From NCBI GenBank assembly GCA_965205865.1, contig CBDBHR010000028.1, forward strand, positions 277,600-341,599: 64,000 nucleotides of DNA, in the 5' to 3' direction. This stretch comes from a bacterium. GTDB lineage: Bacteria; SAR324; NAC60-12. A program made the position numbers and the translations under genes. This document shows positions 15,863-61,160 of this stretch, piece after piece. Under the pieces are notes generated by a model that worked only from the letters and a program-made list of their open reading frames with translations, was not told where the DNA came from and searched no databases. Positions within the stretch are counted from its first letter, which is position 1; every line of letters begins with the position of its first letter.

Positions 15863-18619
15863 ATGACTCATAATTGGGCGCCACCAGTCAAACCATTGAA
15901 ATCGAATCTCGCGGCATTTGGTTTTTGTCTCCTCTGCATCGGGTCGATTTCTCTTACTTTCGCTCCTGTTCATGGGCAAAACATGAATGATCTGAAAGAG
16001 ACCGTCAACAAACTTGGAGAGACGATGATTGAAGAATCTCTCACGGAGCAGCGAAGGGAGCCGCTGCTTGTCGTCACGGGAATTGTCAACGAAAGTACCG
16101 GAAAAAGGGATCTTTTGAGTGAATTGGTAGAAATCCTCTTAGTTGAAGTTTTAGCCCGGGGGGAAAATTATCCCGTTGTTGATTATAGTCAAATCCAGTC
16201 GGTACGAGAAGAAGTGTTAGAAGCTTTTCCCGACTCTTCTGCGGAGCAGATCAGTCAGGACTTAGCCGGTCTTCTAGGAGCAGATTGGTCTGTGACAGGA
16301 TCTTATTTGATACATGAGGGTAAAATCGAATTGCAGTTGCAACTCTATGAATCAGAAATCGACCAGTTGATTTGGGAAGGACAAACTGATTCTTTTTTGG
16401 AATTTGAGGAGGCTGAATCCGGAATCGCGGAAACCACCGTCTCCGAAAGCGAGGAATCGTCTGAATTGATCCCCGAATCCACCCCGCTCGAAACTGCTGT
16501 TGTTGAATCCGGGAGAACTTCTGAATTGATTCTCGAGAATGAGACCATCGAAGCCGAAGCGGGATCGGCCGTAGAGTCGGAACTTGAAGATACAACCATT
16601 GAAACGGCAGCTTCCGAAAGCGAGGAATCGTCTGAATTGATCCCCGAATCCACCCCGCTCGAAACTGCTGTTGTTGAATCCGGGAGAACTTCTGAATTGA
16701 TTCTCGAGAATGAGAGCATCGAAGCCGAAGCGGCATCGGCCGTAGAGTCGGAACTTGAAGATACAACCATTGAAACGGCAGTTTCCGAAAGCGAGGAATC
16801 GTCTGAATTGATCCCCGAAGCCACCCCGCTCGAAACTTCTGTTGTTGAATCCGGGAGAACTTCTGAATTGATTCTCGAGAATGAGACCATCGAAGCCGAA
16901 GCGGGATCGGCCGTAGAGTTGGAACTTGAAGATACAACCATTGAAACGGCAGTTTCCGAAAGCGAGGAATCGTCTGAATTGATCCCCGAAGCCACCCCGC
17001 TCGAAACTGCTGTTGTTGAATCCGGGAGAACTTCTGAATTGATTCTCGAGAAAGAGAGCATCGAAGCCGAAGCGGGATCGGCCGTAGAGTTGGAACTTGA
17101 AGATACAACCATTGAAACGGCAGCTTCCGAAAGCGAGGAATCGTCTGAATTGATCCCCGAAGCCACCCCGCTCGAAACTGCTGTTGTTGAATCCGGGAGA
17201 ACTTCTGAATTGATTCTCGAGAAAGAGAGCATCGAAGCCGAAGCGGCATCGGCCGTAGAGTTGGAACTTGAAGATACAACCATTGAAACGGCAGTTTCCG
17301 AAAGCGAGGAATCGTCTGAATTGATCCCCGAAGCCACCCCGCTCGAAACTGCTGTTGTTGAATCCGGGAGAACTTCTGAATTGATTCTTGAGAAAGAGAG
17401 CATCGAAGCCGAAGCGGGATCGGCCGTAGAGTTGGAACTTGAAGATACAACCATTGAAACGGCAGTTTCCGAAAGCGAGGAATCGTCTGAATTGATCCCC
17501 GAAGCCACCCCGCTCGAAACTGCTATTGTTGAAACCGAAAAGACTTCCGCCTCTATTCCGGTATACGACATAGGTTCAACTTTAGAATTAGAAGAAGCCG
17601 GGAGTTCGGATCCAACTACGGAATTTTTCGATGCATTCGCATATATTGCTATCGACGCAATGAGGCCTCCCCGTGAAGAGGAAGAGATTATTGATGAAAC
17701 GGTTTTGAAGTCGGAATCGGAACAGATCGACATTTCTCAAAAGAAGGACATGGTTTTAGTCTCAGAGGGAAGATTCTCGATGGGCAGTATCAATGGAGAG
17801 GCAAATGAACTGCCAGTGCATTCGGTTTATCTTCATCGTTATCTGATCGACGCGCATGAAGTCACCAATAGCGAATTTGCGCGTTGCGATATTTGTGAGA
17901 AGGGCAGCGGTGGATTTGACACAACGGAGCCCGACCAGCCTGTCGTTTACGTCGATTGGGAAAATGCTGATACTTATTGCCGTTTTGTCGGAAAAAGGCT
18001 GCCTACCGAGGCCGAATGGGAAAACAGCGCCCGGGCGGGAAGTAAAACGGAATATTCATTTGGAAACGTGCGACGACTCGACGCCTATGCATGGTATGAA
18101 GACAACGCGGAGCAGAAGGGGGAACGGTATGCTCACAAGGTGGCAACAAAACAACCCAATGCCTGGAACATTTATGACATGCACGGCAATGTAATGGAAT
18201 GGACCAACGACCTCTTTGTTGAGAATTATTATCAAAAATTAGAGGGCAACAAACCCTGGCATATTTTCGATTACTTCTATAACTCCGAGATCGACCACCC
18301 CTTCAAACCAAATATTTCCTCTGCAGTTGAAACTCCTTTGCGTGTCGTCAGGGGGGGGGCATGGGGAGGATTGTTTGGCACGGGAGACGCTCCCCAGTTG
18401 CGATCTGCAAAGCGTTTTCCGGTCAAGCCTTGGGTACAATCGTTTTTAATTGGATTTCGCTGTGCCGCAGATTGGAATCCACCCATGAATAAAAAGGAAG
18501 AACGGGAAAATGCAACTACTGAGAATACGACTGAATTCAAGGAATTTGATTCTCGGCAGGAAAGGGTGGGTGCGCAGAATGCTGCCGGGCCGAATAGAAA
18601 TCAAAATCAAAATTTTTGA
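15863..18619 (+). CDS. Secreted FGE-sulfatase (SUMF1/DUF323) domain protein with about 6.5 acidic 57-aa tandem repeats
   Basis: Signal peptide at the N-terminus. An LpoB/CsgG/TolB_N-like region follows (PLLVVTGIVNESTGKRDLLSEL...). Then come 6.5 units of a 57-aa repeat (ESEESSELIPEATPLETAVVESGRTSELILEKESIEAEAGSAVELELEDTTIETAVS). The C-terminal FGE-sulfatase domain shows ...RLPTEAEWENSARAG...YAWYEDNAE...WNIYDMHGNVMEWTNDLF...RVVRGGAWG...GFRCAA. The catalytic Cys pair of true FGE is not evident. Confidence 0.7.
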   Translation: MTHNWAPPVKPLKSNLAAFGFCLLCIGSISLTFAPVHGQNMNDLKETVNKLGETMIEESLTEQRREPLLVVTGIVNESTGKRDLLSELVEILLVEVLARGENYPVVDYSQIQSVREEVLEAFPDSSAEQISQDLAGLLGADWSVTGSYLIHEGKIELQLQLYESEIDQLIWEGQTDSFLEFEEAESGIAETTVSESEESSELIPESTPLETAVVESGRTSELILENETIEAEAGSAVESELEDTTIETAASESEESSELIPESTPLETAVVESGRTSELILENESIEAEAASAVESELEDTTIETAVSESEESSELIPEATPLETSVVESGRTSELILENETIEAEAGSAVELELEDTTIETAVSESEESSELIPEATPLETAVVESGRTSELILEKESIEAEAGSAVELELEDTTIETAASESEESSELIPEATPLETAVVESGRTSELILEKESIEAEAASAVELELEDTTIETAVSESEESSELIPEATPLETAVVESGRTSELILEKESIEAEAGSAVELELEDTTIETAVSESEESSELIPEATPLETAIVETEKTSASIPVYDIGSTLELEEAGSSDPTTEFFDAFAYIAIDAMRPPREEEEIIDETVLKSESEQIDISQKKDMVLVSEGRFSMGSINGEANELPVHSVYLHRYLIDAHEVTNSEFARCDICEKGSGGFDTTEPDQPVVYVDWENADTYCRFVGKRLPTEAEWENSARAGSKTEYSFGNVRRLDAYAWYEDNAEQKGERYAHKVATKQPNAWNIYDMHGNVMEWTNDLFVENYYQKLEGNKPWHIFDYFYNSEIDHPFKPNISSAVETPLRVVRGGAWGGLFGTGDAPQLRSAKRFPVKPWVQSFLIGFRCAADWNPPMNKKEERENATTENTTEFKEFDSRQERVGAQNAAGPNRNQNQNF
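16442..17530. repeat. 171-bp tandem repeat array (about 6.5 copies, near-identical) inside a CDS
   Basis: Unit starts at 16442, 16613, 16784, 16955, 17126, 17297 and 17468, giving an exact 171-nt period. Differences between units are only single nucleotides. Confidence 0.9.
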
Positions 18620-18732: not shown

Positions 18733-20073
18733 TCATTGCGCTTTCGCTTGGATGAGTTGGAAGCATTTTGCTGTCGCACCGCCTTGGGACTCAATAGTAT
18801 GCGCAGCTTCTTTTCCCAGTTCATCACAGTATTCACGGTGCTGCAGTAAATGGAACAAGATTTCATGGAATTCTTCCTTGTGCTTTATTGAGAATGCCAG
18901 ATTTTTCTTTAAAAGATCAACTGCTTCCGGAGAGTTGTCATAAAGGGGGCCAAAGATGACTGGCAAACCCATCACGCACGGTTCCATCACGTTGTGCACT
19001 CCGGTGGTGAACGCGCCCCCTACATAAGCCAGATTCCCGATACGATACAGAGATGACAGCACGCCAAGCCTGTCTACCAGGATGATACGCGGCACTTCTC
19101 GTGGATTGTCATCCAGCCGACTGAACCGTTCTATTTTGAAATGCCGGAAAAATGTTTCCGTATGACCCAGATGTTCTTCGGTGGGTTCGTGAGGAACAAT
19201 GATCAGCAGTAAATCCGCAAATTTCCGCAACGCTTCCGCAAGCGCGGGGAAGATGCGCTTTTCCCCTGCAGGCCAACTACTTCCAGCAATAAAGACAAAT
19301 TTGTCTTCAACATAACAAGGCAATTGAGTGAGCGGAAGCCGGTGTTTTCGTGCCAGTACGCTGTCAAAGCGGGTATCGCCCATTGTTTGAATATTGGGAT
19401 GATGCGGATCACAATTACGGAATCGTCGCGCATCTTCTTCCGAGACTGTAAAAATACCATCCAGACAAGTATAAACCATACCGTAAAACAATCGACCTAT
19501 GGCAGACGTCACACGCAAAGAACGGGGCTGCAGGGTTGCCGAGATAAGGAATTGAGGCACTCCGGCAGCATGCGCGTGCCAGATTAAGTTTGGCCAAAGA
19601 TCGTACTTGACATAGACCAGCGCGGAAGGCTGCAAAATGGCCAACAAACGTCTCACGTTTCTTGGAAAGTCAAAAGGGAGATACTCCACGACAACCGGCT
19701 GGCATTGGACTGCGGAATCGGATCCGCTCGATTGAGCGCGTTTGGCCCATTGGTATCCTGAAACAGAACTGAATGTAACGGCACAATCAAAGCCTTCCCG
19801 CAGACATTGTTCCATCACCGGTTCCCCCTGCAAATATTCCCCTACGCTGACGACATGGAACCAGATTAGTGGTTTCCGCAGATTGCGATGCGCGATTTGT
19901 TCATCCAATCGCTTCCAGATTCCTTTTTTACCGGCAAGACTTTCTTTGATTTTTTGATCCTTGAAGGCGACAAAGCGCATGGCTGCCAAAAGTAGAGGGA
20001 GAATGAACCAGGTATAGCAGAAATTCCAAATTTGTCGTTCCATGGACGGGACGCTTTCAGGAATTTTCATCAA
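18733..20073 (-). CDS. waaA: 3-deoxy-D-manno-octulosonic acid (Kdo) transferase
   Basis: N-terminal membrane anchor, then PLIWFHVVSVGE at the N-terminus. C-terminal glycosyltransferase region ...RLPLTQLPCYVEDKFVFIAGSSWPAGEKRI....GLPVIFGP... Confidence 0.8.
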   Translation of the reverse strand: MMKIPESVPSMERQIWNFCYTWFILPLLLAAMRFVAFKDQKIKESLAGKKGIWKRLDEQIAHRNLRKPLIWFHVVSVGEYLQGEPVMEQCLREGFDCAVTFSSVSGYQWAKRAQSSGSDSAVQCQPVVVEYLPFDFPRNVRRLLAILQPSALVYVKYDLWPNLIWHAHAAGVPQFLISATLQPRSLRVTSAIGRLFYGMVYTCLDGIFTVSEEDARRFRNCDPHHPNIQTMGDTRFDSVLARKHRLPLTQLPCYVEDKFVFIAGSSWPAGEKRIFPALAEALRKFADLLLIIVPHEPTEEHLGHTETFFRHFKIERFSRLDDNPREVPRIILVDRLGVLSSLYRIGNLAYVGGAFTTGVHNVMEPCVMGLPVIFGPLYDNSPEAVDLLKKNLAFSIKHKEEFHEILFHLLQHREYCDELGKEAAHTIESQGGATAKCFQLIQAKAQ

Positions 20074-20404: not shown

Positions 20405-20839
20405 TTACGAAAAATCATTACCGGAGCTTTCATGAAGCGCCAACAGTTTTTCCGGAGAAGGTAACTCCGGTGGTTTTTCAGTCCGTAGACCCCCTTGAAA
20501 AACACCACCCCGGGCAACGAACAAACAACCTGGGGGAGTAAAGATTTTCCCCTCGATCTCTCCTTCAGAAAGCACCGCAATGCGTCCATTTGTGATCAAA
20601 TCACCTTCCACCCGTCCATTGACGATGAGATTTTGCGCTCGCACCGTCCCGAAGACCCGGGCAGAATTGCCAATCGTGATGCTGTCTTTGCTGTCTATCA
20701 CACCCCGGCACGTTCCATCGATACGAATGGATCCCTCACAATCTATTTTGCCTTCGAATTCGACGTCGGGTGCAATATAATTCAAAGGTTCTTTCATGGT
20801 TTTTTTCTCGAAAAATCTTCTATTCTTCTGCATCTTCAC
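20405..20839 (-). CDS. Bactofilin family cytoskeletal protein
   Basis: Repetitive beta-helical DUF583 pattern (EGKIDCEGSIRIDGTCRGVIDSKDSITIGNSARVFGTVRAQNLIVNGRVEGDLITNGRIAVLSEGEIEGKI). A Pro-rich tail is present. Confidence 0.7.
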   Translation of the reverse strand: MKMQKNRRFFEKKTMKEPLNYIAPDVEFEGKIDCEGSIRIDGTCRGVIDSKDSITIGNSARVFGTVRAQNLIVNGRVEGDLITNGRIAVLSEGEIEGKIFTPPGCLFVARGGVFQGGLRTEKPPELPSPEKLLALHESSGNDFS

Positions 20840-25707: not shown

Positions 25708-26447
25708 TAAGGAACAAACCTTAAATAACCTGTAATTATTCCAATGGTGTGAGCAAAATTGGGGGACATGTACACCGCTGCGCATCCCAACTCTACTGTT
25801 TTATGCCTGCTGTTACGTGTCCCCTAATTTTGCGTATCCATACTTCTAACTTATTTAAATTTCATTCCTAAAGGACTGGTTTTCCAATGGGGAGTGACCC
25901 GTTGGCAATCAAGGGACGGATTCCGTTTTACAGGATACGTTCATAGGATTTTTTGGCGGAATCCGGACTTCTCTCGAATTCGTCAGCCGGGTTTTGTTCC
26001 GGACTAAAGTTCCGTTCCCAGGGCAATTCATGGGTGTAAAGATAAACTATGGCTAATAGCAAAAGAGCAAAAAAGATGAGAATCGCCTTTTTTTCCTTAG
26101 GATCAAAATTATCCAGCATAAACTCCCTATATTTTCCTGCACCTTCAAAATCTAATGAATAATGCGTCTCTGAAAGACGATCTTCAGTTTAGCAGAGGAC
26201 TTACCACATGTCAGTATTTAACCTCCCGCAATCGCATACTCCGCAGTCTTGCCGCTTGTTTTCGGACAGATGTGGATTGGGCTGCCGTTCAATCTCACTT
26301 GTCCGGGGTAATGTAAACTTCGTATTTCTCTGATATACTGTGAAAAACCGGAACTTGGAAACCCGGGCCAAGTATCAAACTTGCGACGCCATGTCAATGT
26401 CGGCAGTTTGAATGCATCCTTCAATCGGATTGATAAGGAGATCTTAT

Positions 26448-27773
26448 ATGGAGCCGATTTTTGTTGTAGATAACGAACCAGCCATTTGCGAAACCGTGAA
26501 AGGGGTTTTGCAGGACGAGGGCTATTCGGCGATTTCTTGCCCGGACGCTGATACTTTGTTCAAAAAAATAGATTCCCAACACCCTTCCCTGGTCTTGCTC
26601 GATATTTGGTTGCCTGGCACGGACGGGATGGAAATTCTACGCCAATTCAAAACCACTTTTCCTCACATTCCCGTGATCATGATGAGTGGGCATGCCGGGA
26701 TTGACGCAGCAGTCAATGCCATCAAGAGAGGGGCTTTTGATTTCCTGGAAAAACCACTCACCCTGGAAGTGTTGTTGGAGAAAGTCGCAGCGGCACTCAC
26801 TATCCAACCTCAGAAAGAAACCGGCAAACTACCATCCGAGTCACAAACTGCAAGGATGACCGGCCAAGCAATCTATGCAGACGCACTTTCCCTTGTAGAA
26901 TCCAAGCAACCACAGCGTACTTTGAAAAAAAACGTAGTGCTCAATGGTCATGGATTGTTGACTGGTCGCAATACAGGTATCATTGTCAGTCCGCTTGGCG
27001 TCAATGAGGGGATCGTTTTCCAAACCTTGGATGGCTACGCAATCCCGGCCCACATCACGTCCCTGGAAAATTTCTCCCAGATTGATACAACCTCCCGGAC
27101 CTTTACCGTTAATTCCACGGTCTTGGCTCGTAACGGACATCGAGTACGAACGGTAGAACATTTGATGGGCGCCTTGTCAATGTTTGGTCTGACTAATGTT
27201 CAAATTAAGACAGATGAGGAAATTCCCAATATAGATAGTTCTGCAGAAGGATTTTGCCAGTTGATCCAAGAAGCTGGAGTTGTTGATCAATCGGCCCATG
27301 CAAAATGCATTGTAGTGCATGAAAAATTGGGGGTCGGCATTGAAAACCTAAAAGAAAAGCACTTGTTTGTGGAACCCTTTGATGGCTTTGAAATCCAAAT
27401 GCGCGTCAACTACCCTCCTCCCATTCGTGTGCAATCCTTTACTTTCAATGGCAAGCAGCATTCTTTTGAGGAGGAAATCGCACCCGCCCGCACATTCAAC
27501 ACCTTTGAAAACATTGACATGGCTCAAAAAATAGGAAAGATCGGAAGCGGATATTTGAATTCCCACATCATTATGCATGATGGCAAAGTGATCAACACGA
27601 AACTGCGATATCCCGATGAGTTTGTGCGGCATAAAATTTTGGATTTGATTGGAGACCTCTACCTCATCGGCTTTCCTATCCAAGGTCGTTTTATTGCCAA
27701 CATGACCTCCCACAGTTACAACCATTCATTGATAAAAAAAATACACGTGGCTCTTATGGGTAACTCTTCATGA
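26448..27773 (+). CDS. lpxC: Response-regulator receiver domain fused to UDP-3-O-acyl-N-acetylglucosamine deacetylase (REC-LpxC)
   Basis: AAGGAG RBS lies 8 nt upstream of the ATG at 26448. REC domain aa 1-120 has phosphoacceptor Asp in LVLLDIWLPGTDG, Ser in MMSGHAG and Lys in LEKPL; the acidic pair is D-N-E. A 50-aa linker follows. The C-terminal 280 aa are full-length LpxC (PQRTLKK..., TVEHLMGAL, ARTFNTFENI, FVRHKILDLIGDLYLIG, TSHSYNHSL) with all Zn ligands and catalytic residues present. Confidence 0.8.
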   Translation: MEPIFVVDNEPAICETVKGVLQDEGYSAISCPDADTLFKKIDSQHPSLVLLDIWLPGTDGMEILRQFKTTFPHIPVIMMSGHAGIDAAVNAIKRGAFDFLEKPLTLEVLLEKVAAALTIQPQKETGKLPSESQTARMTGQAIYADALSLVESKQPQRTLKKNVVLNGHGLLTGRNTGIIVSPLGVNEGIVFQTLDGYAIPAHITSLENFSQIDTTSRTFTVNSTVLARNGHRVRTVEHLMGALSMFGLTNVQIKTDEEIPNIDSSAEGFCQLIQEAGVVDQSAHAKCIVVHEKLGVGIENLKEKHLFVEPFDGFEIQMRVNYPPPIRVQSFTFNGKQHSFEEEIAPARTFNTFENIDMAQKIGKIGSGYLNSHIIMHDGKVINTKLRYPDEFVRHKILDLIGDLYLIGFPIQGRFIANMTSHSYNHSLIKKIHVALMGNSS

Positions 27774-28219
27774 ACTATTCTCGTCATAAATGCCGTGAAC
27801 ACGCCTTGCAGTGCCTTTATCAGATTGAAATCCTCGAATCGGCTTCCCCCAAGGGAATTGATTATTTTCTGGAACAGCTCAACGTCATGGAAGAAGCCAG
27901 GCAATTCACGCGCAGCTTGATTGCGGGAACCCTGGAGCATGCGCCACAAATTGATGCGCTCTTAATTGCGATCATGGAAGAATGGCGCCTGGAACGGCTC
28001 TCTATCGTGGTGCGCAATTTATTGCGTCTTTCTGTTTATGAAATGAAATTCTCCCAAGAGACCCCTTATGAAGTTATTATCGACGAAGCAGTAATCATGG
28101 CAAAGGAATTTGTTGATGACGTGGCCCGTAGTTTTGTCAATAAAGTCTTACAAAATATTCACGATGCTTCCTCCTCGTCCCCGGACCTCTTCCCTTTCCC
28201 TGCAATTCCTGAAAGCTAA
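27770..28219 (+). CDS. nusB: Transcription antitermination factor NusB
   Basis: ...REHALQCLYQIEI...; length and helical pattern fit NusB. Its ATG overlaps the lpxC stop codon (ATGA). Confidence 0.7.
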   Translation: MNYSRHKCREHALQCLYQIEILESASPKGIDYFLEQLNVMEEARQFTRSLIAGTLEHAPQIDALLIAIMEEWRLERLSIVVRNLLRLSVYEMKFSQETPYEVIIDEAVIMAKEFVDDVARSFVNKVLQNIHDASSSSPDLFPFPAIPES

Positions 28220-28385: not shown

Positions 28386-31300
28386 ATGGAAAATCGGTCT
28401 TTGTTTTTACAAGCAGAAGCCATGTCTAAAGACCTCTCTTTGCTTCCTGAAGAGAGGCTCCCTTTTTTTGATGAGTCCTCGCTACTTGGACTTGTTTCCC
28501 AAGAAGACATTAAAAAAAACATTGACCGCTTGCGGCGACTGGACGTCGACGAATACATTCGGCAGACGGTTCTTCCTACGGAGAATCCTAAACGCCGTAG
28601 TGCGCCGGAAGTGATTAAAAATCTGCGCGGCAAGTTGATCAAAGAGGAATTAGATGGCCCACTTTACGTGGCGGAGATTGAATTTTTTACTAACAATCGA
28701 CTGCGACGTTTTGGCGTAATTGCGCAAAATCGCAAAAATCAGGCAGGTGTTTGGTACCCCCAGCATCATCTGAAAGCAGCAGAGTACGCTCGATTTTTTG
28801 CATCTCACGGCATGCCGCTCATTACATTCATGGACACCCCCGGTGCAGCAGCGGATACGGAAGCCAACCTGCGCAATCAGTCCCATAGCATCTCCTTTTT
28901 CATTGCCGAAATGGCCAACCTCGAAATTCCGACACTGGGGATCGTATATGGACAAGGCTATAGCGGTGGCGCCATTCCTCTGGCCACTACCAATATCCTC
29001 TTGTCAGTGAGAGATGGGGTCTTCAACACCATTTATCCGAAAGGATTGAGCAACATTGCCCGCAAGTACAACTTATCCTGGGAGGAATGTGCCAAGTATA
29101 TTGGGGTTTCCGCCTTTGAATTGAATGCGGCAGGTTATTTTGACGGGATCATCGATTACACTCCGGAAGAGCCTCATCTGCTCGATAATTTGCAAAATGC
29201 GATTTTGAGTGCCGTTGAGTGTATTGAAGACAACTCTAAAAAGCTCTTGAAAAGTCACAACCTGTTTTTTTGGGAACATTACCAGGAAAGTTTGAATCAT
29301 TACCTGAATCCTTCAGAGATGTTGATTGAGGATAATATTCTGACGGACAAGACCCCCACTGGGATTCTCAACATATTTGGCGATGTCAATCGTTTTTTGC
29401 GTTACTTGAAGCTCCGCCAAAAAATCACAAGTCAATCCGTACTTCATTATGCCAGGCTCAGTACGATGCCGCAAGGCCAACTCCAGGAACGATTAGCAAG
29501 AGAACAGCGCGAAAAATTTCAAAACTGGCTCAAATCCCCTGTGGAACTGCGTTACCATGACAATTTGTTCAGGAAATATAAACGTTTCAGAGAAGCCTGT
29601 CAAAATCGGGAAAATCAACGGAGGAGGTTGGTGACTTTTTTCATTGGGGATCCTAAAGAAAGGTTTGAAACAGCAACTAAAGAATTGACCTCCGAGGTGC
29701 TTTTGTTCCTTTATAATTACTGGAAGGAAAACGCCATTGAGAATCTCACCCAGTTGTATGAATACCTCAAGTATTTCAAATCGACCGTTACCTTGCCAGA
29801 TCAGAATGTGACGTTGTTGGAAGCATTGCAAAATGAGCATCTTTGCCACAGTTTTCAAAGAAATTTTCAAAACATCATTTTGTTTGATCATTTATATGAT
29901 GGCGTGATGAATAACCTGACGATGATTGCAGGAGAATTGAATGGCACCAACCAGATTTCCCGGAAATCAGTGGAAAAATTATTTGAAAGTTCCTTCGATT
30001 CAGCTATTCAGGAATTTGAAAACCACTCTCCGGATCTTCAAACAACCGATGCCAAAGAACGTTTTTTCAAATGGCTGCAGCTTTTCATCACTCAAAAAAA
30101 CTGCGACGAAATCATGCATAATATCAGTGATTGGAAACAGCGTGCTTTTCCCCGTCTCAGTCAGCCCTTGTTCGGTTTGGTCCGCTATTATTTTGCTACC
30201 TTACTTCCGGCCTTGAATACCGCGGAGTCGGATAGCGATTCACGGAAGCAAAAAAAATTCAGCGGCAAGATCACTCCCCGCAATATCGGCATCAAGGACT
30301 TTTGGAACCGCCTGGACCGAGCATACAAAGATCTCCTCATTCAAGACCTGCTCCGGGAGTACAAAAAAAAGCCAATTACCCCAAAGCGCATCATTGATTA
30401 TTTTTTTGAAGACTTCGAAGAATTGTACCACGACCGCATTACCGTCGATCCGGTAAAATTTCCCGGGTTTCGCCAGTCGGTAGAGCAAGCTTTGCAGAAA
30501 GGAGTGACCCCATGTGGTATCATCACCGGTTTGGCAACGTTCGCGGATGAAAATCAGCGCAACCGGGTCGGGCTGGCCATAAGCAATACCAAATTTCAAG
30601 CAGGAGCCTTCGACATGGCAAGCAGTGAGAAAATTTGTCAACTGCTGGCCGAATGCACAAAGCATAAACTGCCACTCATTATGTTTATCTCCGCAGGAGG
30701 GATGCAAACTAAAGAAGGGGCGGGGGCGCTTTTTTCCATGCCGGTGTTGAATGACCGCATGACTCGCTTCATCAAAGACAATGAATTGCCTGTGATTTGT
30801 TTCGGATTCCGGGATTGTATGGGAGGCGCCCAAGCCAGCTTCGTCACCCATCGCCTGGTCAAAACCTATTACTTTTCAGGGACCATCATGTCATTTGCCG
30901 GGCAATTGGTCGTGGAGAGTCACTTGCCCATGAATGCGATTTTGTCCAACTACCTTTCCAACACGCCGGGAAGTATGGAAGGTCTCGTTCACAATCCTTT
31001 TGATGAAGCCATCGATGCTAAACTGAAAGAAGCGGATCCTCAAATCCCTCTGGCCCAATTGACGGTGAGGGATGTGATTTCCAAAATTATGGCCGGCGAG
31101 TATCGTCCGTATTTCAAACCCGAAGAAAACGCCATTGCTCAAATTTTCGAAGAAAAACTTCACTTGGGCCCCATTCAACGAATATTGATTCATGCGCGTG
31201 GCTGCACTGCAACACGCTTGATTTATGCAGCTCATGAGGCGGGTCTGGAAGTGGTACTTGTACAATCCGACCCGGATATGGATAGCTATCCGGCCAATTT

Positions 31301-32930
31301 ATTAAAAAAGAAAGATCGCCTTGTTTGCCTTGGAGGCAACACTGCGCAGGAGAGTTATCTCAATGCGGGAAGCATTATCCTGATTGCTGAACAGGAAGGA
31401 GCGGACGCGCTCCATCCCGGCATTGGTTTTCTTTCAGAATCATCCCAGTATGCCAGGATTTGCCGGGAACATGGACTCAATTTTATTGGCCCCAGCGCTC
31501 ATAGTATGGATTTGATGGGTAATAAATCCAATGCGTTGGCGACGGCAAAACGTCTGAAGATCCCAGTCGTTCCCGGAAGTGCAGGGGCCCTTGCAGATCC
31601 CGTTCAGGCAGAAACGGTTGCCCGGGAAATCGGATTTCCTGTCTTGATCAAAGCCACCCACGGTGGCGGAGGTAAAGGAATTCGCGTAGTTGAAGAATCG
31701 GAGTCTCTGGTCGATGTCTTTTCCCAAATGTCCCAGGAAGCCCTGAACGCTTTTGGCAATGGGGATTTGTATCTGGAAAAATATATTATTTCAATGCGAC
31801 ATATCGAAGTCCAAATCTTGAGAGACAGCCATGGCAACACCAAAATACTGGGCATGAGGGATTGCACGGTACAGCGCAACTATCAAAAATTGATTGAAGA
31901 GTCGATTGGAGAGCATTTTCCAAAGTTAATCGTCAAGCAACTCTACCGTTATACTGAATCAATCATCAATGAAATCGATTACCTTGGGGCAGGCACAGTC
32001 GAATTCATTTATGATCGCCTCCATCAGAAAATCTATTTTATGGAAATGAACACCCGCTTGCAGGTGGAACATCCTGTTACCGAAATGGTATCTGGCCTGG
32101 ATCTCGTTCAAAAGCAATTGGAAATCGCCGAAGGCGGCAATATCGAGGACTTGTCCGTTGAACTCAACGGACATGCTATGGAATTACGGGTCAATGCGGA
32201 AAAAATTGAAATCAACCCGGATGGCACGCTTGTTTTTCTTCCCGACCCGGGAACTATCACAAAAGTAGAATTACCGGCATTCCAAAATATCCGCTTCGTT
32301 TCCGCCGTAAAAAGCGAAAGCGCGGTTCCTCCCTATTACGACGGCCTGATTGCCCAAATCATTGCTCATGGGCCAACCCGTGGAGAAGTGATTCAAACAC
32401 TGTTGGATTATCTGAAAGAAATCCGCATCACTGGCATCTCCACAAACCTGGCGTTGGCTGAGGCGATTTTGGAAAATGAACTTTTCCAGTCAGGAGATTA
32501 CGATACCGGATTTCTGAAAACCTTCCTACAACAAATCGATATCCACCAATTGATCCGTGCCACTCAAAATCATGCCGGGGACACGGGGGCGGCAATCGAC
32601 CAGAAGACCATTGCCATTCCGGACTCAAGGGAACTCAAGGTGCTTTCTCCCCAAACCGGCGCTTTCTATCGCTCTTCCTCTCCGAGTGACCCGGTATTTG
32701 TCGAAGAAGGACTACAAATTGGTAGCGGGCAAACCCTTTGTCTGCTGGAATCGATGAAAGTCTTCAACGAACTAAGGTTGAAAGCATACAAGGGAGGAGA
32801 TGGAGAACTGCTCTATCCGGAGGACACTTTTTACCGGATCAAAAAAATTATTCCCGAGGACAAGCAAACCGTCAGTCGAGGGGATCTATTATTTGTCATT
32901 GAACCGGAAGAAACCCTCCAATCTGCCTAG
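28386..32930 (+). CDS. Single-chain multidomain carboxylase: carboxyltransferase alpha - unknown 370-aa region - carboxyltransferase beta - biotin carboxylase - BCCP (AccADC-like)
   Basis: - aa 60-320: AccA-like (...PLITFMDTPGAAAD...GIVYGQGYSGGAIPLA...).
- aa 330-690: no recognisable domain.
- aa 700-880: AccD-like (...FISAGGMQTKEGAGALFSM...).
- aa 900-1350: ATP-grasp biotin carboxylase (...VLIKATHGGGGKGIRVV..., ...EMNTRLQVEHPVTEMVSGLDLVQ...).
- C-terminal biotinyl domain with LLESMKVFNEL. Confidence 0.8.
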   Translation: MENRSLFLQAEAMSKDLSLLPEERLPFFDESSLLGLVSQEDIKKNIDRLRRLDVDEYIRQTVLPTENPKRRSAPEVIKNLRGKLIKEELDGPLYVAEIEFFTNNRLRRFGVIAQNRKNQAGVWYPQHHLKAAEYARFFASHGMPLITFMDTPGAAADTEANLRNQSHSISFFIAEMANLEIPTLGIVYGQGYSGGAIPLATTNILLSVRDGVFNTIYPKGLSNIARKYNLSWEECAKYIGVSAFELNAAGYFDGIIDYTPEEPHLLDNLQNAILSAVECIEDNSKKLLKSHNLFFWEHYQESLNHYLNPSEMLIEDNILTDKTPTGILNIFGDVNRFLRYLKLRQKITSQSVLHYARLSTMPQGQLQERLAREQREKFQNWLKSPVELRYHDNLFRKYKRFREACQNRENQRRRLVTFFIGDPKERFETATKELTSEVLLFLYNYWKENAIENLTQLYEYLKYFKSTVTLPDQNVTLLEALQNEHLCHSFQRNFQNIILFDHLYDGVMNNLTMIAGELNGTNQISRKSVEKLFESSFDSAIQEFENHSPDLQTTDAKERFFKWLQLFITQKNCDEIMHNISDWKQRAFPRLSQPLFGLVRYYFATLLPALNTAESDSDSRKQKKFSGKITPRNIGIKDFWNRLDRAYKDLLIQDLLREYKKKPITPKRIIDYFFEDFEELYHDRITVDPVKFPGFRQSVEQALQKGVTPCGIITGLATFADENQRNRVGLAISNTKFQAGAFDMASSEKICQLLAECTKHKLPLIMFISAGGMQTKEGAGALFSMPVLNDRMTRFIKDNELPVICFGFRDCMGGAQASFVTHRLVKTYYFSGTIMSFAGQLVVESHLPMNAILSNYLSNTPGSMEGLVHNPFDEAIDAKLKEADPQIPLAQLTVRDVISKIMAGEYRPYFKPEENAIAQIFEEKLHLGPIQRILIHARGCTATRLIYAAHEAGLEVVLVQSDPDMDSYPANLLKKKDRLVCLGGNTAQESYLNAGSIILIAEQEGADALHPGIGFLSESSQYARICREHGLNFIGPSAHSMDLMGNKSNALATAKRLKIPVVPGSAGALADPVQAETVAREIGFPVLIKATHGGGGKGIRVVEESESLVDVFSQMSQEALNAFGNGDLYLEKYIISMRHIEVQILRDSHGNTKILGMRDCTVQRNYQKLIEESIGEHFPKLIVKQLYRYTESIINEIDYLGAGTVEFIYDRLHQKIYFMEMNTRLQVEHPVTEMVSGLDLVQKQLEIAEGGNIEDLSVELNGHAMELRVNAEKIEINPDGTLVFLPDPGTITKVELPAFQNIRFVSAVKSESAVPPYYDGLIAQIIAHGPTRGEVIQTLLDYLKEIRITGISTNLALAEAILENELFQSGDYDTGFLKTFLQQIDIHQLIRATQNHAGDTGAAIDQKTIAIPDSRELKVLSPQTGAFYRSSSPSDPVFVEEGLQIGSGQTLCLLESMKVFNELRLKAYKGGDGELLYPEDTFYRIKKIIPEDKQTVSRGDLLFVIEPEETLQSA

Positions 32931-44672: not shown

Positions 44673-45441
44673 GGTCAGGCCGTGCGCCAGGAAAGCTGGC
44701 AAGAAATAGAGAGTGAAAGTCTCTTACTCGGTAAGGCAGTAACGACCCGCCGAGTCCCCGAGTCATGAGTGGTTATTCGCAAGGATAGGCGCTAAGCGTT
44801 GACAGGGGAGAACATAGGCTCGGTATTGAGCTCCGAAATCATAGTTTCAGGTGCTGACCTTGTAGTCTGGTGGGGAAGGCAACATCAACCGAAGGCGTTA
44901 GCGTGAGTCCCGGTCGAGCCTGGCGGAGTCAAAGACCCGGTGCATGTGTGGAAGTTTCTTGATCGGAACCTGGGAGATCCTGAAGACGACTGTCAACATT
45001 CTATTGGTAGTCGGATCGGGAAAATTAATAAATAACCCCGATATCTACGTCTTCAGGAAGTCGGACAAGTTCGTAGTAGCGATGAAGCGGCGAACAATGA
45101 GATCATTTGTAGAGAGTAATAATGCAAAGGAAATCAACGGAGCCTGTGGAGCAAAGGGACTTGGCTGAGAGGAATTCTGCTTGCCCTCCTGTGTTCGGAA
45201 CTCAGAGGCCGGTAAAATCAGAGAGCGGTTTAAGCAGGGTGCGCCAAACGGCAACGTCTGAGCGTCTGACTCGAAGCAGGAGCCGGATGCGTTAGCAGCG
45301 CATGTCCGGATCTGTACCGGAGGAATGACGAAAGGTGGCTGGAAACCACTATAAGTCAGTTCTTTACGGTGACTTTGATTAAATGAAAAGGGAGCAAAAA
45401 AACTAGACTCGTTCCTAATCAAACAATCAAAGGCCTGACCC
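44673..45441 (+). mobile_element. ~770-bp non-coding group-II-intron-like repeat, copy A
   Basis: Starts GGTCAGGCC|GUGCGCCAGGAAAGCUGGC (GUGCG, then a GAAA-tetraloop hairpin). Near the 3' end is GAGCCGGAUGCG-uuagca-GCGCAUGUCCGGAUCU, which is domain-V-like (AGC triad, 2-nt bulge). Ends ...AAAGGCCUGACC. The 9-nt termini are inverted repeats. Copies A, D and E are about 95% identical. Confidence 0.5.
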
Positions 45442-48611: not shown

Positions 48612-50292
48612 TCAGGCCGTGCGCCAGGAAAGCTGGCAAGAAATAGAGAGTGAAAGTCTCTTACTCGGTAAGGCAGTAACGACCCGCCGAGTCCCCGAGT
48701 CATGAGTGGTTATTCGCAAGGATAGGCGCTAAGCGTTGACAGGGGAGAACATAGGCTCGGTATTGAGCTCCGAAATCATAGTTTCAGGCGCTGACCTTGT
48801 GGTCTGGTGGGGAAGGCAATATCAACCGAAGGCGTTAGCGTGAGTCCCGGCTGAGCCTGGCGGAGTCAAAGACCCGGTGCATGTGTGGAAGTTTCTTGAT
48901 CGGAACCTGGGAGATCCTGAAGACGACTGTCAACATTCTATTGGTAGTCGGATCGGGAAAATTAATAAATAACCCCGATATCTACGTCTTCAGGAAGTCG
49001 GACGAGTTCGTAGTGCGCACTGGGCAGCGCATGATTCAGGTGGGTTCAAGTTCCACTCAGCCTGAGATCCCAGGCTGATATCCAAAAGCGGGGGTAATGC
49101 CTCGCTGGCCGGAATGTTTACCAGGGCGCCATCCTGGGCGCTTTAAGCACAATGGGAGGTCGAAAGGGCCAAATGCACCGAAGTGAACTTCCGGAGGACA
49201 GGGTGTCCACCGTGAGGTGGAATCTGAAGGGTTTGCGGAGAATCACCGGGTCGTAGTCAAGGAGGCTACTCCAGAGACGAACCGGTCGGCCAACAGCAGG
49301 GAATGGTTGAGCTTGCACTATGATGGCGAAAGCAGTTGGATTCCCCCCTGCAATACCAAGGTGTGTGCGGACGACACGGTGAGGAAGAATCATGAGTGAC
49401 CCCAGGAGGACTCAGGGCGTTCTTAGGTGGCACTAGGATAAGGGACCCTATAAGCGAAAGCGAAGTGGAAACCGAAGCGTGTTGAGTAGTCGGACCATCG
49501 AATAGTACCTGAAGCGTAGTGAGAGCTACGTGACCGAGGGATCGGCAGCAGAGTGAGCTGGGGAAGGCGATGGGCAGAGAAGGTTGGAATGAGAAAGGAA
49601 GTCAGATGAGTAAGGACAGTGAGGTGGAAAGTTCGGTAAGTGAAAGACCCAGAACTCATGGCCCGAGGAGACTGGCTGACTGGATCAATCTAACGGGAGC
49701 AAAGAAGGTTCACTCCTTAGTGGACAAGATTTACAAGAAGCTCTCCCCGAAACAAGATTATATGGGGAGTATCGGTTAGTAAATCTGATCTCACTAATTC
49801 CTTCGATTGGTCCCTTCGGCAAACGGACTTCTCTGTGAAAGCCGGATGCGGGAAAACTGCACGTCCGGTTTGGGCGGCGGACGGTGGCTAGCGGAAACGC
49901 GCCTCCTCCGACCCGACAGCGATGAAGCGGCGAACAATGAGATCATTTGTAGAGAGTAACAACGCAAAGGAAATCAACGGAGCCTGTGGAGCAAAGGGAC
50001 TTGGCTGAGAGGAATTCTGCTTGCCTTCCTGTGTTCGGAACTCAGAGGCCGGTAAAATCAGAGAGCGGTTTAAGCAGGGTGCGCCAAACGGCGAATCCGA
50101 ATCAACGTTTGAGCGTCTGACTCGAAGCAGGAGCCGGATGCGTTAGCAGCGCACGTCCGGATCTGTACCGGAGGAATGACGAAAGGTGGCTGGAAACCAC
50201 TATAAGTCAGTTCTTTACGGTGACTTTGATTAAATGAAAAGGGAGCAAAAAAACTAGACTCGTTCTTAATCAAATAATCAAAGGCCTGACCC
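48612..50292 (+). mobile_element. 770-bp repeat copy B/C interrupted by a nested ~905-bp group II intron
   Basis: 48612-49012 matches the 5' 400 bp of copy A. 49921-50292 matches the 3' 370 bp. The intervening 49013-49917 is unique to this copy. Confidence 0.6.
49013..49917 (+). ncRNA. Group II intron (ORF-degenerate) inserted into repeat copy B
   Basis: Starts GUGCGCAC. Near the 3' end is AAGCCGGAUGCGG-gaaaa-CUGCAC-GUCCGGUUU. This gives a domain V with AGC triad, AC bulge and G-U wobble at the triad G, close to the consensus GAGCCGUAUGCGAUGAAAGUCGCACGUACGGUUC. A domain-VI-like helix with a bulged A follows. An internal 69-aa ORF (49570-49779, ...RRLADWINLTGAKKVHSLVDKIYKK...) resembles the N-terminus of intron-encoded reverse transcriptases. 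Boundaries are uncertain to about 5 nt. Confidence 0.6.
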
Positions 50293-50590: not shown

Positions 50591-52460
50591 GACCCTAGCC
50601 GAAAAGGGTTTCGAGAAATAGTAAATGTAACCAATTTGATTCTATTTGATTCTCTATTTGATTCAATATGACGAGAATAACGATTTATTTTGTTTTTTAT
50701 TCGCCCACATGAAACAGTTTTTATAGGGAAAAAATCTTTTTTTGGACATACTTTCCTCGCCCCTGCTCATATTTCACACTTCCCCCATTGAATATTCAGG
50801 CCGCTTGTTTGAGTTGTCTTTTTTTCAACTCAATCATTTTGCAAAAATTATAGGTTAAGAGCTTTTTCCAGCAACTCTGCCCGAACGTTTTCAATCCCTC
50901 TGCGCATAACTTGTCCGAAATGGAAACGATGCTTAAGATGAAACATCAACGACTCTGCAGCAGATCTTCCATTTCGTGATTCCAAATAGATTTCACTTTC
51001 CCATTCTTCAATCGGGGTCATCTTTTTTCCCAAACGCCCCACTAATACTAAAAACCTTAACGCCTTTGCCCATCCACTTTTCTCTGATCGCCTGATTGGC
51101 ATATCCATCATCAAGGCTCACTTCAGAGGGAATGGTGATGGTGCATCGCAAATGTTCAACAAGGGCAGGGTCGAGTTGCCCTGAATCAGCAGCATGGCCC
51201 TCCGGAGTAATTAACACGGAAATAAAACCATTTCCGCTCCTTCCTAATTGAGGCTTATATCCGATAAGCGCTTCTCGATCTCTTTTGAATATAAGCCGAG
51301 CTCTGATCGGAAAGACTCAATACTTTCTCAGTCGAAGGAACCTTCTTTTCTTCAAAAACTCTTTGATGACAGTAGATGATTCCGTTGCAAATTAGAAATA
51401 TCTTCATTCATCATTTCAATGAGGCGAATAACGCGTTTTCCGAGAAGGGGGGAGAAGAGCTTTTTGAGGCACGGTAATAAGGACAGTTTGCGATTTCTTT
51501 TAAAAATTTCCCAAAGCGCTATTGAGCTTTCTCAATAGCGGTCATTTGAAATGTTTTTAAAAGCTTCGTTTTACTGTCCTTTTTACCGTGTCTCAAAAGC
51601 CATCATCCCCCCTTAGAAAAGCTTATTCATCTCCTTGATGAGGAAATCAAAATTTCTTTCACTGATCTCAGCGATTCCAAATGTATCAAGGGAACGCCCT
51701 CGATGGTAGCTTCGCTCCGATCGAGACGAGTCATATTCGAGGGAATCGAGTAGGCCAAGCTGATATTTCCTTTTACAGAGGTGCTATCCAGTTTTTAATA
51801 TCAAAATCGTCCAACTCTTCATCGAGAACCATTCTGAATTCAGAGCAATCGAAAATAAACTGTTGAACTCTCGTTGATGACAGCATTGACCATTATCTGA
51901 AGGAGCCTTGTACTCGATCCCGGCATTGCCAATCCACGGTTGAGCAAAAGCAGATGCAAAGTGTGATTGACTCTGAAAGAATTATTTGGGCCGTTTGGGA
52001 TTTGATACTTCCTAAATGATCCCCGAATCATGATAAAAAGGTAAACTAAAAAAGCCGAATCCGAGGACAGATCTATTTCCAGTCCTGAGTTCTTCGGCTT
52101 CAATTCCTCATCTTCCATTACGGGAAGATGAGGAAGCCATGGATTCCGGGCTTCCTGCCAGTTTATCCTCTAAACGCTCTTTCTTTTTATTTCTTGCGTA
52201 TTTCTCCAAATCCTGTTCAATTTTGTCCAATATCTCCGGCTCTCGCTCAGACAATTGATCAAGTTCTGATAAGAAATTTTCAAATTCTGTATCAGGAGCG
52301 CTTAAAATAAGATGTTTTTCTGCTCGAATGAATGGTTTCATTTTGGGTGCCATAATTCTTAATATTGAAGTTATTCACAGTCATTTCAATGAATTATGGC
52401 ACTTTCAATAACCTCAAGTTTAAAGATATAATTCTAAAAAATACCTTTTCGGCTAGGATC
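50591..52460 (-). mobile_element. IS copy 1 (same family as 59323-61154), transposase pseudogenised
   Basis: Same TIRs (GACCCTAGCCGAAAAGG ... CCTTTTCGGCTAGGATC). TAGCTA is present on both flanks, consistent with a 6-bp TSD. The transposase frame is broken into at least 4 pieces (ORFs 50848-51114, 51008-51217, 51840-52118, 52108-52353) by indels. Confidence 0.7.
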
Positions 52461-55918: not shown

Positions 55919-56698
55919 GGTCAGGCTGTGCGCCAGGAAAGCTGGCAAGAAATAGAGAGTGAAAGTCTCTTACTCGGTAAGGCAGTAACGACCCGCCGAG
56001 TCCCCGAGTCATGAGTGGTTATTCGCAAGGATAGGCGCTAAGCGTTGACAGGGGAGAACATAGGCTCGGTATTGAGCTCCGAAATCATAGTTTCAAGTGC
56101 TGACCTTGTAGTCTGGTGGGGAAGGCAACATCAACCGAAGGCGTTAGCGTGAGTCCCGGTCGAGCCTGGCGGAGTCAAAGACCCGGCGCATGTGTGGAAG
56201 TTTCTTGATCGGAACCTGGGAGATCCTGAAGACGACTGTCAACATTCTATTGGTAGTCGGATCGGGAAAATTAATAAATAACCCCGATATCTACGTCTTC
56301 AGGAAGTCGGACAAGTTCGTAGTAGCGATGAAGCGGCGAACAATGAGATCATTTGTAGAGAGTAACAATGCAAAGGAAATCAACGGAGCCTGTGGAGCAA
56401 AGGGACTTGGCTGAGAGGAATTCTGCTTGCCCTCCTGTGTTCGGAACTCAGAGGCCGGTAAAATCAGAGAGCGGTTCAAGCAGGGTGCGCCAAACGGCAA
56501 TCCGAATCAACGTTTGAGCGTCTGACTCGAAGCAGGAGCCGGATGCGTTAGCAGCGCACGTCCGGATCTGTACCGGAGGAATGACGAAAGGTGGCTGGAA
56601 ACCACTATAAATCAGTTCTTTACGGTGACTTTGATTAAATGAAAAGGGAGCAAAAAACTGGACTCGTTCCTAATCAAATAATTAAAGGCCTGACCCCT
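55919..56698 (+). mobile_element. ~770-bp group-II-intron-like repeat, copy D
   Basis: Full-length copy, same orientation. It ends 28 bp upstream of the start codon of the 56727 lipoprotein gene. The 12-bp CTGACCCCTTTT is tandemly duplicated at the 3' junction. Confidence 0.5.
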
Positions 56699-58095: not shown

Positions 58096-59330
58096 ATGAG
58101 AATCCGTCAGATTACGAGCATCACGATCTTGTTGCTGTTGGCTGCAACGGCTTCTAATCTCGTTTGGGCTCTCACCCCCACTTCATCAATGGAGTTGCCC
58201 CTGACGCAGGGGGAGCAGGCCGCAAGACTCTGGCGGATTGCCAGTGCGGAGGTCGCTCGCAAGCTCTATCCGACTTTCGGTAGAGACGATCGAACCAAAG
58301 TTTTATTACCAGCGCAACTATCGCCTCCTGTGGATTGAAGCAACCCTCAATCAACGGATACTGTTGGCAGAAAAGATTGGTGTTACAAGGTGCCGCCAGG
58401 TTCGCTGCGGAACGAGGTTGGATTAAGATACTCGGTTTTCGGTATCGTGGCATCCAACAAGGGCCAGACTCCGTGTATTGGGATCAACGATCAGGTCGTC
58501 TCCGCGTACTGGAAGCGAAAGGAGGAACTGCCAAACCAATAAAGGCTTTCAATAGCTTGCAGGGTACGAATAAAAACGCGATCAGGTCTGCTAGATTTGT
58601 TCTTCGGTCATTAAAAGCAACCCTTATGGAAAAACATGCGGCTGCACTTGTAATTGTGGCTGCTCAGCAGGGTCGACTCGTTACAGGTGTAATAAATACT
58701 CTTCACAAGTTGGGAACTCCGGACACCCCCAAGCTGGCAGGCAATTGGGATTACGATTATGTAGGAAGGGAAGCAAGCACGATCGAGCAGAAATTAATCC
58801 GTAATAAACCCGAGGTTCGATCAGTCTTTCGGCATGCGCATAAGGAGCAATCATTTGCCATGCTGAAATACTGGGAAACCCGAAGACCGGCGAACATTGG
58901 ATTTGCTAGGAATGCGTACCAGCAGTCACTGATTGCCTGGTCCAAGTTCAACAATCCTCCCCTGAAAGGAAACGTTTTACCCTACATAAGGACTGGCTCG
59001 TCGATTCACAGAATAACACAGTCAACTACTCAACCAGGTATTTTGAGACTTTCCAAGGAGGGAGTTAGTAAGTTTGCCGGCAGATTGATTCTACCGGTCA
59101 TCCTTGGTGTGGAGGGATTACAATTTGCCATAGCATATCACCAATACGGCTTGGGTCGTATCAGTCAGCGTGATTTCTACCGTCGCACTACCGGACCCGC
59201 GATCGTCGCGGTTTTCACAGTCGGCGGAGCTATAGTTGGTGGGATTATTGGAATGCAAGGCGGAGGGATCACGGCAATCCCAGTTGCCTACACTGGTGCC
59301 AAAATAGGCGCGATCCTAGCTAGACCCTAG
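58096..59330 (+). pseudogene. Secreted protein with C-terminal glycine-zipper membrane segment, likely disrupted (frame changes near 58240-58340) and 3'-truncated by IS
   Basis: The signal peptide ORF (58096-58338), a third-frame ORF (58238-58426) and the main ORF (58335-59330) each continue plausible protein sequence across overlaps. The last two codons and the stop (AGA CCC TAG) lie inside the IS left end. The C-terminus GAIVGGIIGMQGGGITAIPVAYTGAKIGAIL is a Gly-zipper. Confidence 0.35.
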
Positions 59331-61154: not shown

Positions 61155-61160
61155 CTAGCT

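Follow-up and report, generated by a model that had tools for sequence, protein, structure and literature searches.

In a 64,000-nt stretch of DNA from a bacterium of the SAR324 lineage NAC60-12 (assembly GCA_965205865.1, contig CBDBHR010000028.1, forward-strand positions 277,600 to 341,599; hereafter, this whole stretch is the window), we analyzed a gene, REC::lpxC (26448..27773, + strand), that fuses a response-regulator receiver (REC) domain to LpxC, the committed enzyme of lipid A synthesis. With moderate confidence, we read its product as a functional LpxC under direct control of its own receiver: an NtrY-type kinase, encoded elsewhere, would phosphorylate Asp52 and thereby change enzyme output at the protein level. 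This reading draws on the domain architecture, on the conserved residues, on selection, and on the receiver's NtrX origin and genomic association with NtrY. The protein would be an enzyme-output response regulator derived from NtrX, widespread yet uncharacterized, that relates both to known enzyme-output regulators and to post-translational control of LpxC.

The gene is an intact, uninterrupted open reading frame (ORF) of 441 codons plus stop, and the in-frame fusion proposed in the initial annotation was borne out by Pfam matches to both domains. Response_reg (PF00072) was detected at residues 4-113 (95 bits, E = 3e-27; cut-off 30 bits) and LpxC (PF03331) at residues 156-432 (240 bits, E = 4e-71; cut-off 27 bits); these were the only Pfam domains in the window protein, with neither an AAA+ nor an HTH_8 domain found. 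The NCBIfam equivalog model TIGR00325 (lpxC) scored 201 bits against its cut-off of 187 bits. On the + strand, the receiver (residues 4-118) is encoded at 26457..26801, the inter-domain linker (residues 119-155) at 26802..26912 and the LpxC deacetylase domain (residues 156-441) at 26913..27770. The linker, first estimated at 50 aa, measures about 35-40 aa.

To profile the distribution of the fusion, 8000 candidates were scored in a word-indexed protein search, 7741 of them at E ≤ 1e-5. The 120 best matches (hereafter, the listed members of the core family) all carry both domains, are about 440 aa long and are 59-100% identical over their full length. They come from SAR324, Nitrospirota, Desulfobulbaceae and 'Deltaproteobacteria TL4', and an identity of at least 60% is kept across phyla in the core family. 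A scan of one genome per species returned 18 fusion loci, including one from the cultured Desulfofustis glycolicus DSM 9705. The fusion is thus widespread, with thousands of database proteins sharing the architecture that the initial annotation had treated as unusual and had proposed to look for in other genomes. Every source annotates the protein simply as LpxC, and no characterization elsewhere was found; of the refuting finding named initially, an architecture both widespread and already characterized, only the first part holds. Keyword literature searches gave no description of a REC-LpxC fusion, although response-regulator censuses may contain a bare listing, and the words 'fusion' and 'response regulator' are absent from a 2025 review of lipid A regulation (PMC12444477), in line with the early impression that the mechanism is undescribed.

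Residue conservation was assessed in an alignment of 20 members and then checked in the 120 listed members, with E. coli LpxC numbering transferred via an alignment to P. aeruginosa LpxC. In the receiver, the acceptor D52 (in LLDIWLPG; codon 26601-26603), S80, F99 and K102 are invariant (120/120), P103 follows K102, and D8 is kept in 119 of the 120. In the LpxC domain, E237-H238 (codons 27156-27161) correspond to E. coli E78/H79, and H395, K396, D399 and D403, all within the motif HKILDLIGD (27630-27656), to H238, K239, D242 and D246; these residues are also invariant, including the Zn ligands H238, H395 and D399 (E. coli His79, His238 and Asp242; 120/120). H422 (codon 27711-27713; E. coli H265) is kept in 119 of the 120, and T349-F350 are equivalent to T191/F192, with Ser or Thr at position 349 across the family. 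The acceptor Asp, the Ser/Thr and Lys switch residues, the Zn ligands and the catalytic Glu/His named in the initial annotation are therefore all present in the alignment.

The AlphaFold2 (AF2) model of the window protein had a mean predicted local distance difference test (pLDDT) score of 83 and a predicted template modeling (pTM) score of 0.77. The receiver showed the (beta-alpha)5 pattern of five alternating strands and helices at a pLDDT of about 90, and the C-terminal domain matched solved LpxC structures in Foldseek (E = 4e-28, TM 0.8-0.9), consistent with the usual two-domain LpxC fold. Linker residues 120-141 were modeled as disordered (pLDDT below 50). The combination of this pTM with a disordered linker suggests that the receiver may pack against the enzyme. 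In the window lineage, the ratio of nonsynonymous to synonymous substitution rates (dN/dS) was 0.07-0.08 for the receiver, equal to that of the LpxC domain, and 0.32-0.46 for the linker, indicating relaxed selection there. With a receiver as constrained as the enzyme and a linker under relaxed constraint, purifying selection evidently maintains the receiver, even in the lineage with an Asn at position 9 (see below).

NtrX origin of the receiver and association with NtrY

The initial annotation had described a generic CheY-like receiver. The best NCBIfam receiver model was instead NtrX (NF051870), with 120 bits over residues 2-147 and no other model above 88 bits, and the best solved-structure match was Brucella NtrX (5m7n/4d6x). 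Identity of the window receiver to NtrY-paired NtrX receivers is 41-49%, compared with 27-28% to unrelated receivers. On these sequence comparisons, we classify the receiver as NtrX-type. The window protein itself is better regarded as a trimmed NtrX::LpxC derivative than as a member of the NtrX subfamily, because both the AAA+ and the helix-turn-helix (HTH) domains have been deleted.

Intermediate architectures were recovered when 1.84 billion representative proteins, among which the core family collapses to one representative, were searched exhaustively with phmmer. Apart from divergent REC-LpxC proteins (32-43% identical to the query), the search returned proteins of about 480-505 aa with the Pfam order REC-HTH_8-LpxC, and proteins of about 650-736 aa with the order REC-Sigma54_activat-AAA_lid-HTH_8-LpxC (hereafter, long forms). 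The latter were as abundant as the short REC-LpxC form, and their LpxC domains are 41-45% identical to the query, compared with 33-42% for stand-alone LpxCs. The HTH-bearing forms, with or without AAA+, come from Deltaproteobacteria/Thermodesulfobacteriota, Nitrospinota and Entotheonellia/Tectomicrobia, and are often named NtrX by the Joint Genome Institute (JGI). As in NtrX, the AAA+ domain of the long forms has a Walker A motif and lacks GAFTGA; it is degenerate in the Nitrospinota protein P0131. In an alignment of short and long forms, the receiver and LpxC were common to both, and the short forms lacked the AAA+/HTH region exactly where the window protein has its linker.

In a tree of LpxC domains, all fused proteins formed one clade (136/200 neighbor-joining bootstraps), separate from stand-alone LpxCs and from LpxC forms with C-terminal extensions, and the core REC-LpxC family was recovered in 200/200. 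Short forms were nested several times among long forms; for example, the 453-aa REC-LpxC protein P0388 and a long form are 75% identical in the parts that both have. Most simply, NtrX and LpxC would have fused once, and the AAA+ and DNA-binding domains would then have been lost repeatedly. Loss of the AAA+ domain has also been reported for beta-proteobacterial NtrX proteins (PMC13001219).

The genomic context of the fused relatives links them to the kinase NtrY. One contig of 2.15 Mb (L036, 5131-10169) carries mutS-DUF4390-ntrY-ntrX::lpxC, followed a few genes later by lolA and rseP. The long-form block seen here and at two further loci (L034 and L037, 8001-10220) reads (glnD/phoH)-ybeY-mutS-[DUF4390-ntrY]-fusion-lolA-rseP-rimP-nusA-infB. 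The P0388 locus reads mutS-ntrY-REC::lpxC-lolA-rseP, with REC::lpxC 36 nt downstream of the NtrY-type kinase gene; P0388 is accordingly a receiver-LpxC protein without a DNA-binding domain that is paired with an adjacent kinase.

Unfused genes show a related arrangement. A metagenome scan for long forms matched generic NtrC-family patterns and returned mostly loci of unfused regulators. Among these, ntrY was directly upstream in 49 of 77 NtrX-like loci, and a stand-alone lpxC was immediately upstream on the same strand in 13 of the 30 loci with enough further upstream sequence. The order lpxC-DUF4390-ntrY-ntrX was confirmed by Pfam in three metagenomic loci, and unfused lpxC-(DUF4390)-ntrY-ntrX operons lie at L043 2202-7347, L068 2622-7359, L088 2231-7335 and, in the complete Desulfonema limicola genome (CP061799.1), at L118 8001-13224. 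NtrY of D. limicola is called as two ORFs, NtrY_N followed by HAMP-PAS-HisKA-HATPase. We found no description of this unfused lpxC-ntrYX synteny beyond a remark on S. fumaroxidans (PMC3333781).

Gene neighborhood and gene fusion both tie LpxC to NtrYX. The fusion could have originated from an lpxC in an operon with DUF4390-ntrY-ntrX, by fusion of lpxC to the NtrX C-terminus to give REC-AAA+-HTH-LpxC and then by loss of the AAA+ and DNA-binding domains in several lineages, including that of the window, to give REC-linker-LpxC. Operon-linked stand-alone LpxCs were rejected as the specific sister of the fused clade (0/200 bootstraps), and the tree did not show direct descent of this clade from them.

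Proposed control of LpxC by the receiver

In the mechanism that we propose, Asp52 would be phosphorylated by a membrane histidine kinase of the NtrY type whose gene lies outside the window, and the ensuing change in the receiver would switch deacetylase output directly at the protein level. The receiver could, in the manner of CheB, uncover or cover the active site or the acyl tunnel of LpxC, and an alternative route would be phosphorylation-driven dimerization. We infer the phosphorylation, the direction of its effect, its mode (occlusion, dimerization or stability) and which kinase this organism uses. That NtrY and REC::LpxC form a dedicated two-component switch acting directly on the committed lipid A enzyme is a more tentative proposal, to which we give somewhat less than an even chance. 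Direct two-component control, as first put forward, is partly supported, by the fusion, the residues, selection and the NtrY-adjacent relative; the window itself holds no cognate kinase, and its receiver has an Asn at position 9.

Several observations weigh against the switch. The acidic stretch of the window receiver reads D8-N9-E10 (Asn9 codon 26472-26474), where position 9 is equivalent to CheY Asp13, a Mg2+ ligand. The D-N-E reading given initially was correct for this protein but is lineage-specific: position 9 is Asp, completing a D-D pair, in 117 of the 120 listed members, and Asn only in P0001-P0003, a group made up of the window protein and the two members closest to it. Asn at the CheY Asp13 position impairs phosphorylation. 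Since the Mg2+-binding Asp is replaced in this lineage, phosphorylation of the window protein appears less certain than that of the rest of the family.

The kinase raises a second difficulty. With NtrY as tblastn query, no NtrY-like histidine kinase was detected anywhere in the 64 kb of the window, nor within 10 kb of any of the 22 further short-form loci, and core short-family neighborhoods vary between phyla, with no kinase consistently adjacent. The search for a cognate kinase suggested at the outset thus yielded none in the window but did find NtrY beside related fusions (L036 and P0388). P0388, however, stems from a separate domain-loss event, outside the core family, and for the core short-form subfamily we can only infer a kinase partner. 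Two candidates near a SAR324 fusion (L031) were rejected: an upstream 669-aa HATPase_c protein is not NtrY-like, and a PAS kinase after nusB is not conserved at other loci.

On the enzyme side, Leu occupies the position of E. coli H19 in 120/120 listed members. The core family also has sequences of its own in loops that other LpxCs conserve, several of them near the active site, namely GLLSGR (GLHSG in others), IPNIDGSA, ARS/TFNTFEN and GSGYLNSHII; in addition, it carries a disordered insert of ~10 aa in the LpxC domain. Together these features lie at positions 171, 215-221, 260-266, 347-354 and 366-375. Judging from these differences, the core-family LpxC could have an altered substrate or altered kinetics.

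Among the alternatives, the receiver may act without phosphorylation, at least in the window lineage, as a structural, dimerization or partner-binding remnant of NtrX, with LpxC modulated constitutively or by a bound protein or ligand. This would account for an Asn in place of the Mg2+-binding Asp in P0001-P0003 and for the lack of a kinase in the window or beside other core-family loci, the gene being an orphan in Nitrospirota and Desulfobulbaceae too. We nevertheless consider it unlikely: the conservation of D52, S80, F99, K102 and D8 is typical of phosphorylatable receivers, the full acidic pair is present in nearly all listed members, and a dN/dS of 0.07 in the Asn lineage indicates continued constraint. 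Moreover, many response regulators are orphans, and these usually receive their phosphate from a kinase encoded far away.

It is likewise improbable that the fusion is a second, conditional or substrate-shifted LpxC paralogue beside a housekeeping lpxC, a possibility compatible with the proposed switch. The protein passes the NCBIfam lpxC equivalog cut-off, both long and short forms occur in the conserved housekeeping/envelope block mutS-...-lolA-rseP-rimP-nusA-infB, and the ntrYX-linked lpxC of unfused operons encodes an ordinary LpxC. No second lpxC was found in the window or in ~450 kb of DNA flanking the fusion loci. As to co-occurrence of the two forms, a homology search with a canonical Desulfobacterales LpxC gave Desulfobacterales names alone, with no fusion-bearing taxon among them. 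In favor of a paralogue stand the separation of the fused clade from stand-alone LpxCs, the loop changes and insert of the core family, and the ordinary stand-alone lpxC of some Desulfobacterota; the high identity across phyla could also reflect horizontal spread of an accessory gene.

Less probable still, phosphorylation could set the amount of LpxC and not its rate, with the receiver serving as a regulated degron or adaptor-binding module that replaces proteobacterial FtsH/LapB or Lon control. Of the ways in which LpxC is controlled, proteolysis is the best known (PMC12444477), and the enterobacterial C-terminal degron is absent from the window protein, which ends in ...HVALMGNSS; however, the modeled pTM and the disordered linker would fit allosteric or steric control at least as well. 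An artifact, i.e., a sequencing or assembly frameshift joining adjacent genes (a concern raised in the initial annotation), is excluded by the continuous frame without a stop, by the identical 441-aa protein (P0001) in public assemblies, where it is found on several contigs that are independent of each other and reach 1.7 Mb, and by thousands of full-length homologues, including from an isolate genome.

Genes around REC::lpxC

The start of REC::lpxC is likely ATG 26448, because the Shine-Dalgarno sequence AAGGAG (26434..26439, +; read from the sequence) lies 8 nt 5' of it and homologues begin at the same residue in the alignment; a second in-frame ATG upstream, at 26412, is probably not used. 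No Rfam element was found upstream of the gene, and a promoter and terminator scan gave nothing usefully above shuffled controls.

The stop codon overlaps the start of nusB (27770..28219, +; Pfam NusB and TIGR01951 matches) as ATGA at 27770-27773, and a carboxylase gene follows from 28386, both as initially annotated. The REC::lpxC-nusB order also occurs at the loci L030 and L031 and is absent from the Nitrospirota and Desulfobulbaceae fusion loci examined, so it is kept only in the SAR324-like lineage. The nusB coupling and the proximity of the carboxylase are lineage-specific and uninformative on function. In beta- and gamma-proteobacteria, ntrYX is located 3' of rsmB and DUF4390 (PMC13001219); that an NtrX-derived gene is coupled to nusB here may be a coincidence. 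Several RsmB models, too, gave matches to the window NusB over their N-terminal ~130 residues, with scores under the respective cut-offs. The carboxylase (28386-32930, +) is a single-chain, biotin-dependent protein of 1514 aa with the order carboxyltransferase (CT; ACCA/AccD-like), biotin carboxylase (BC), biotin carboxyl carrier protein (BCCP), compared with the eukaryotic layout BC-BCCP-CT, and its gene is kept after nusB in an 85%-identical relative (L030).

Upstream of REC::lpxC, the window encodes a Kdo transferase (WaaA; 18733..20073, -; Pfam PF04413 Glycos_transf_N, 143 bits), from which it follows that the organism makes lipopolysaccharide (LPS). This gene and a bactofilin gene (20405-20839, -) adjoin a gene for a 918-aa protein (15863-18619, +) with an LpoB-like N-terminal region and an FGE-sulfatase domain, forming an envelope-related neighborhood.

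The far end of the window is rich in repeats. Group II intron D1-D4 RNA gave four near-identical matches (158-165 bits) at 44716-44938, 48653-48875, 55962-56184 and 63206-63428 (+), which sit in repeats that each occur four times; a domain V/VI match (Intron_gpII) was found only at the copy near 49837-49917. An insertion sequence (IS) element with a 509-aa DDE_Tnp_1 transposase is present in tandem at 59316-61102 and 61155-62941, with a third, partial or interrupted copy at 50861-52405, and a low-GC stretch (GC 0.33-0.37) spans 52-56 kb.

Relation to known systems and significance

The closest known system is NtrY/NtrX (PlrSR/PlrP in Bordetella). The window receiver is NtrX-type, and relatives of the fusion adjoin ntrY and a DUF4390 (PlrP-type) gene; genetic evidence makes DUF4390 (PlrP) a third component of some NtrYX systems, in a report that does not mention lpxC (PMC13001219). 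In R. sphaeroides and Caulobacter, a connection of NtrYX with the expression of lpxC and the level of LPS is already on record (PMC7240162; PMC12444477). In alphaproteobacteria, NtrYX and ChvGI affect lpxC transcriptionally (PMC12444477), and loss of NtrYX in R. sphaeroides raised lpxC mRNA 8.8-fold and LPS two-fold, apparently indirectly (PMC7240162). Known NtrX, however, is a DNA-binding regulator of the transcription of many genes whose effect on lpxC is reported as indirect, whereas the window protein has neither AAA+ nor HTH, its output is the enzyme itself, and no ntrY is adjacent to it in the window.

A second parallel is the D. vulgaris system DVU2931-DVU2934 (Rajeev et al. 2011, PMC3333781), in which lpxC is the single mapped target of the response regulator DVU2934. 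The S. fumaroxidans operon orthologous to that of DVU2934 has lpxC immediately upstream of it (PMC3333781), a placement that resembles the lpxC-ntrY-ntrX synteny. This system differs in that a separate DNA-binding regulator exerts transcriptional control. We considered the D. vulgaris papers as a prior account of the fusion and rejected them, as their subject is transcriptional control.

In architecture, the window protein resembles CheB, the REC-GGDEF proteins PleD/WspR and the REC-HD-GYP protein RpfG, all of which have an N-terminal receiver, a flexible linker and a C-terminal catalytic domain. These proteins are the obvious mechanistic model, in which the unphosphorylated receiver blocks the catalytic domain or fails to assemble it, and which may apply to the window protein, given its matching architecture. 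Its output differs, being a biosynthetic lipid A metallo-amidase and not a signaling or adaptation enzyme, and its receiver comes from a transcription factor. Another natural LpxC fusion is LpxC-FabZ (NCBIfam NF009667), and proteins of this type, in which an extension of ~160 aa follows LpxC, surfaced in our searches. There, the partner is a C-terminal, pathway-adjacent enzyme and not an N-terminal signaling domain, and in the tree such proteins are placed outside the clade of receiver fusions.

The flux into lipid A is set by LpxC, a major antibiotic target, and both a shortage and an excess are lethal. The reviewed controls include FtsH/LapB/YejM proteolysis (E. coli), MurA activation (P. 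aeruginosa), Lon and Ght (PMC12444477). Like the proposed switch, these set lipid A flux at the LpxC protein, but they and the reviewed transcriptional controls all act in trans, and the former work through proteolysis or partner binding, without phosphorylation or an attached sensor domain. If NtrY and REC::LpxC do form a dedicated switch, LpxC would have its first regulator that is covalently attached and works by phosphorylation. Receiver-attached LpxC in SAR324, Nitrospirota, Nitrospinota, Desulfobacterota and Entotheonellia would extend the known controls by a new class, with the enzyme switched directly by a sensor kinase in the membrane, and Desulfofustis glycolicus DSM 9705 offers a cultured host of the fusion.

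The fusion together with the conserved operon also makes a gene-fusion ("Rosetta stone") argument for cooperation between NtrYX and LpxC. The physiology of NtrYX has been puzzling, with reports on nitrogen, redox and the envelope, and the link between NtrYX and LPS becomes a testable biochemical hypothesis. If the dedicated switch is real, the conserved operons and the fusions would indicate that controlling the homeostasis of LPS and the outer membrane is a core and ancient task of NtrYX, which would explain the envelope phenotypes of alphaproteobacterial ntrYX mutants.

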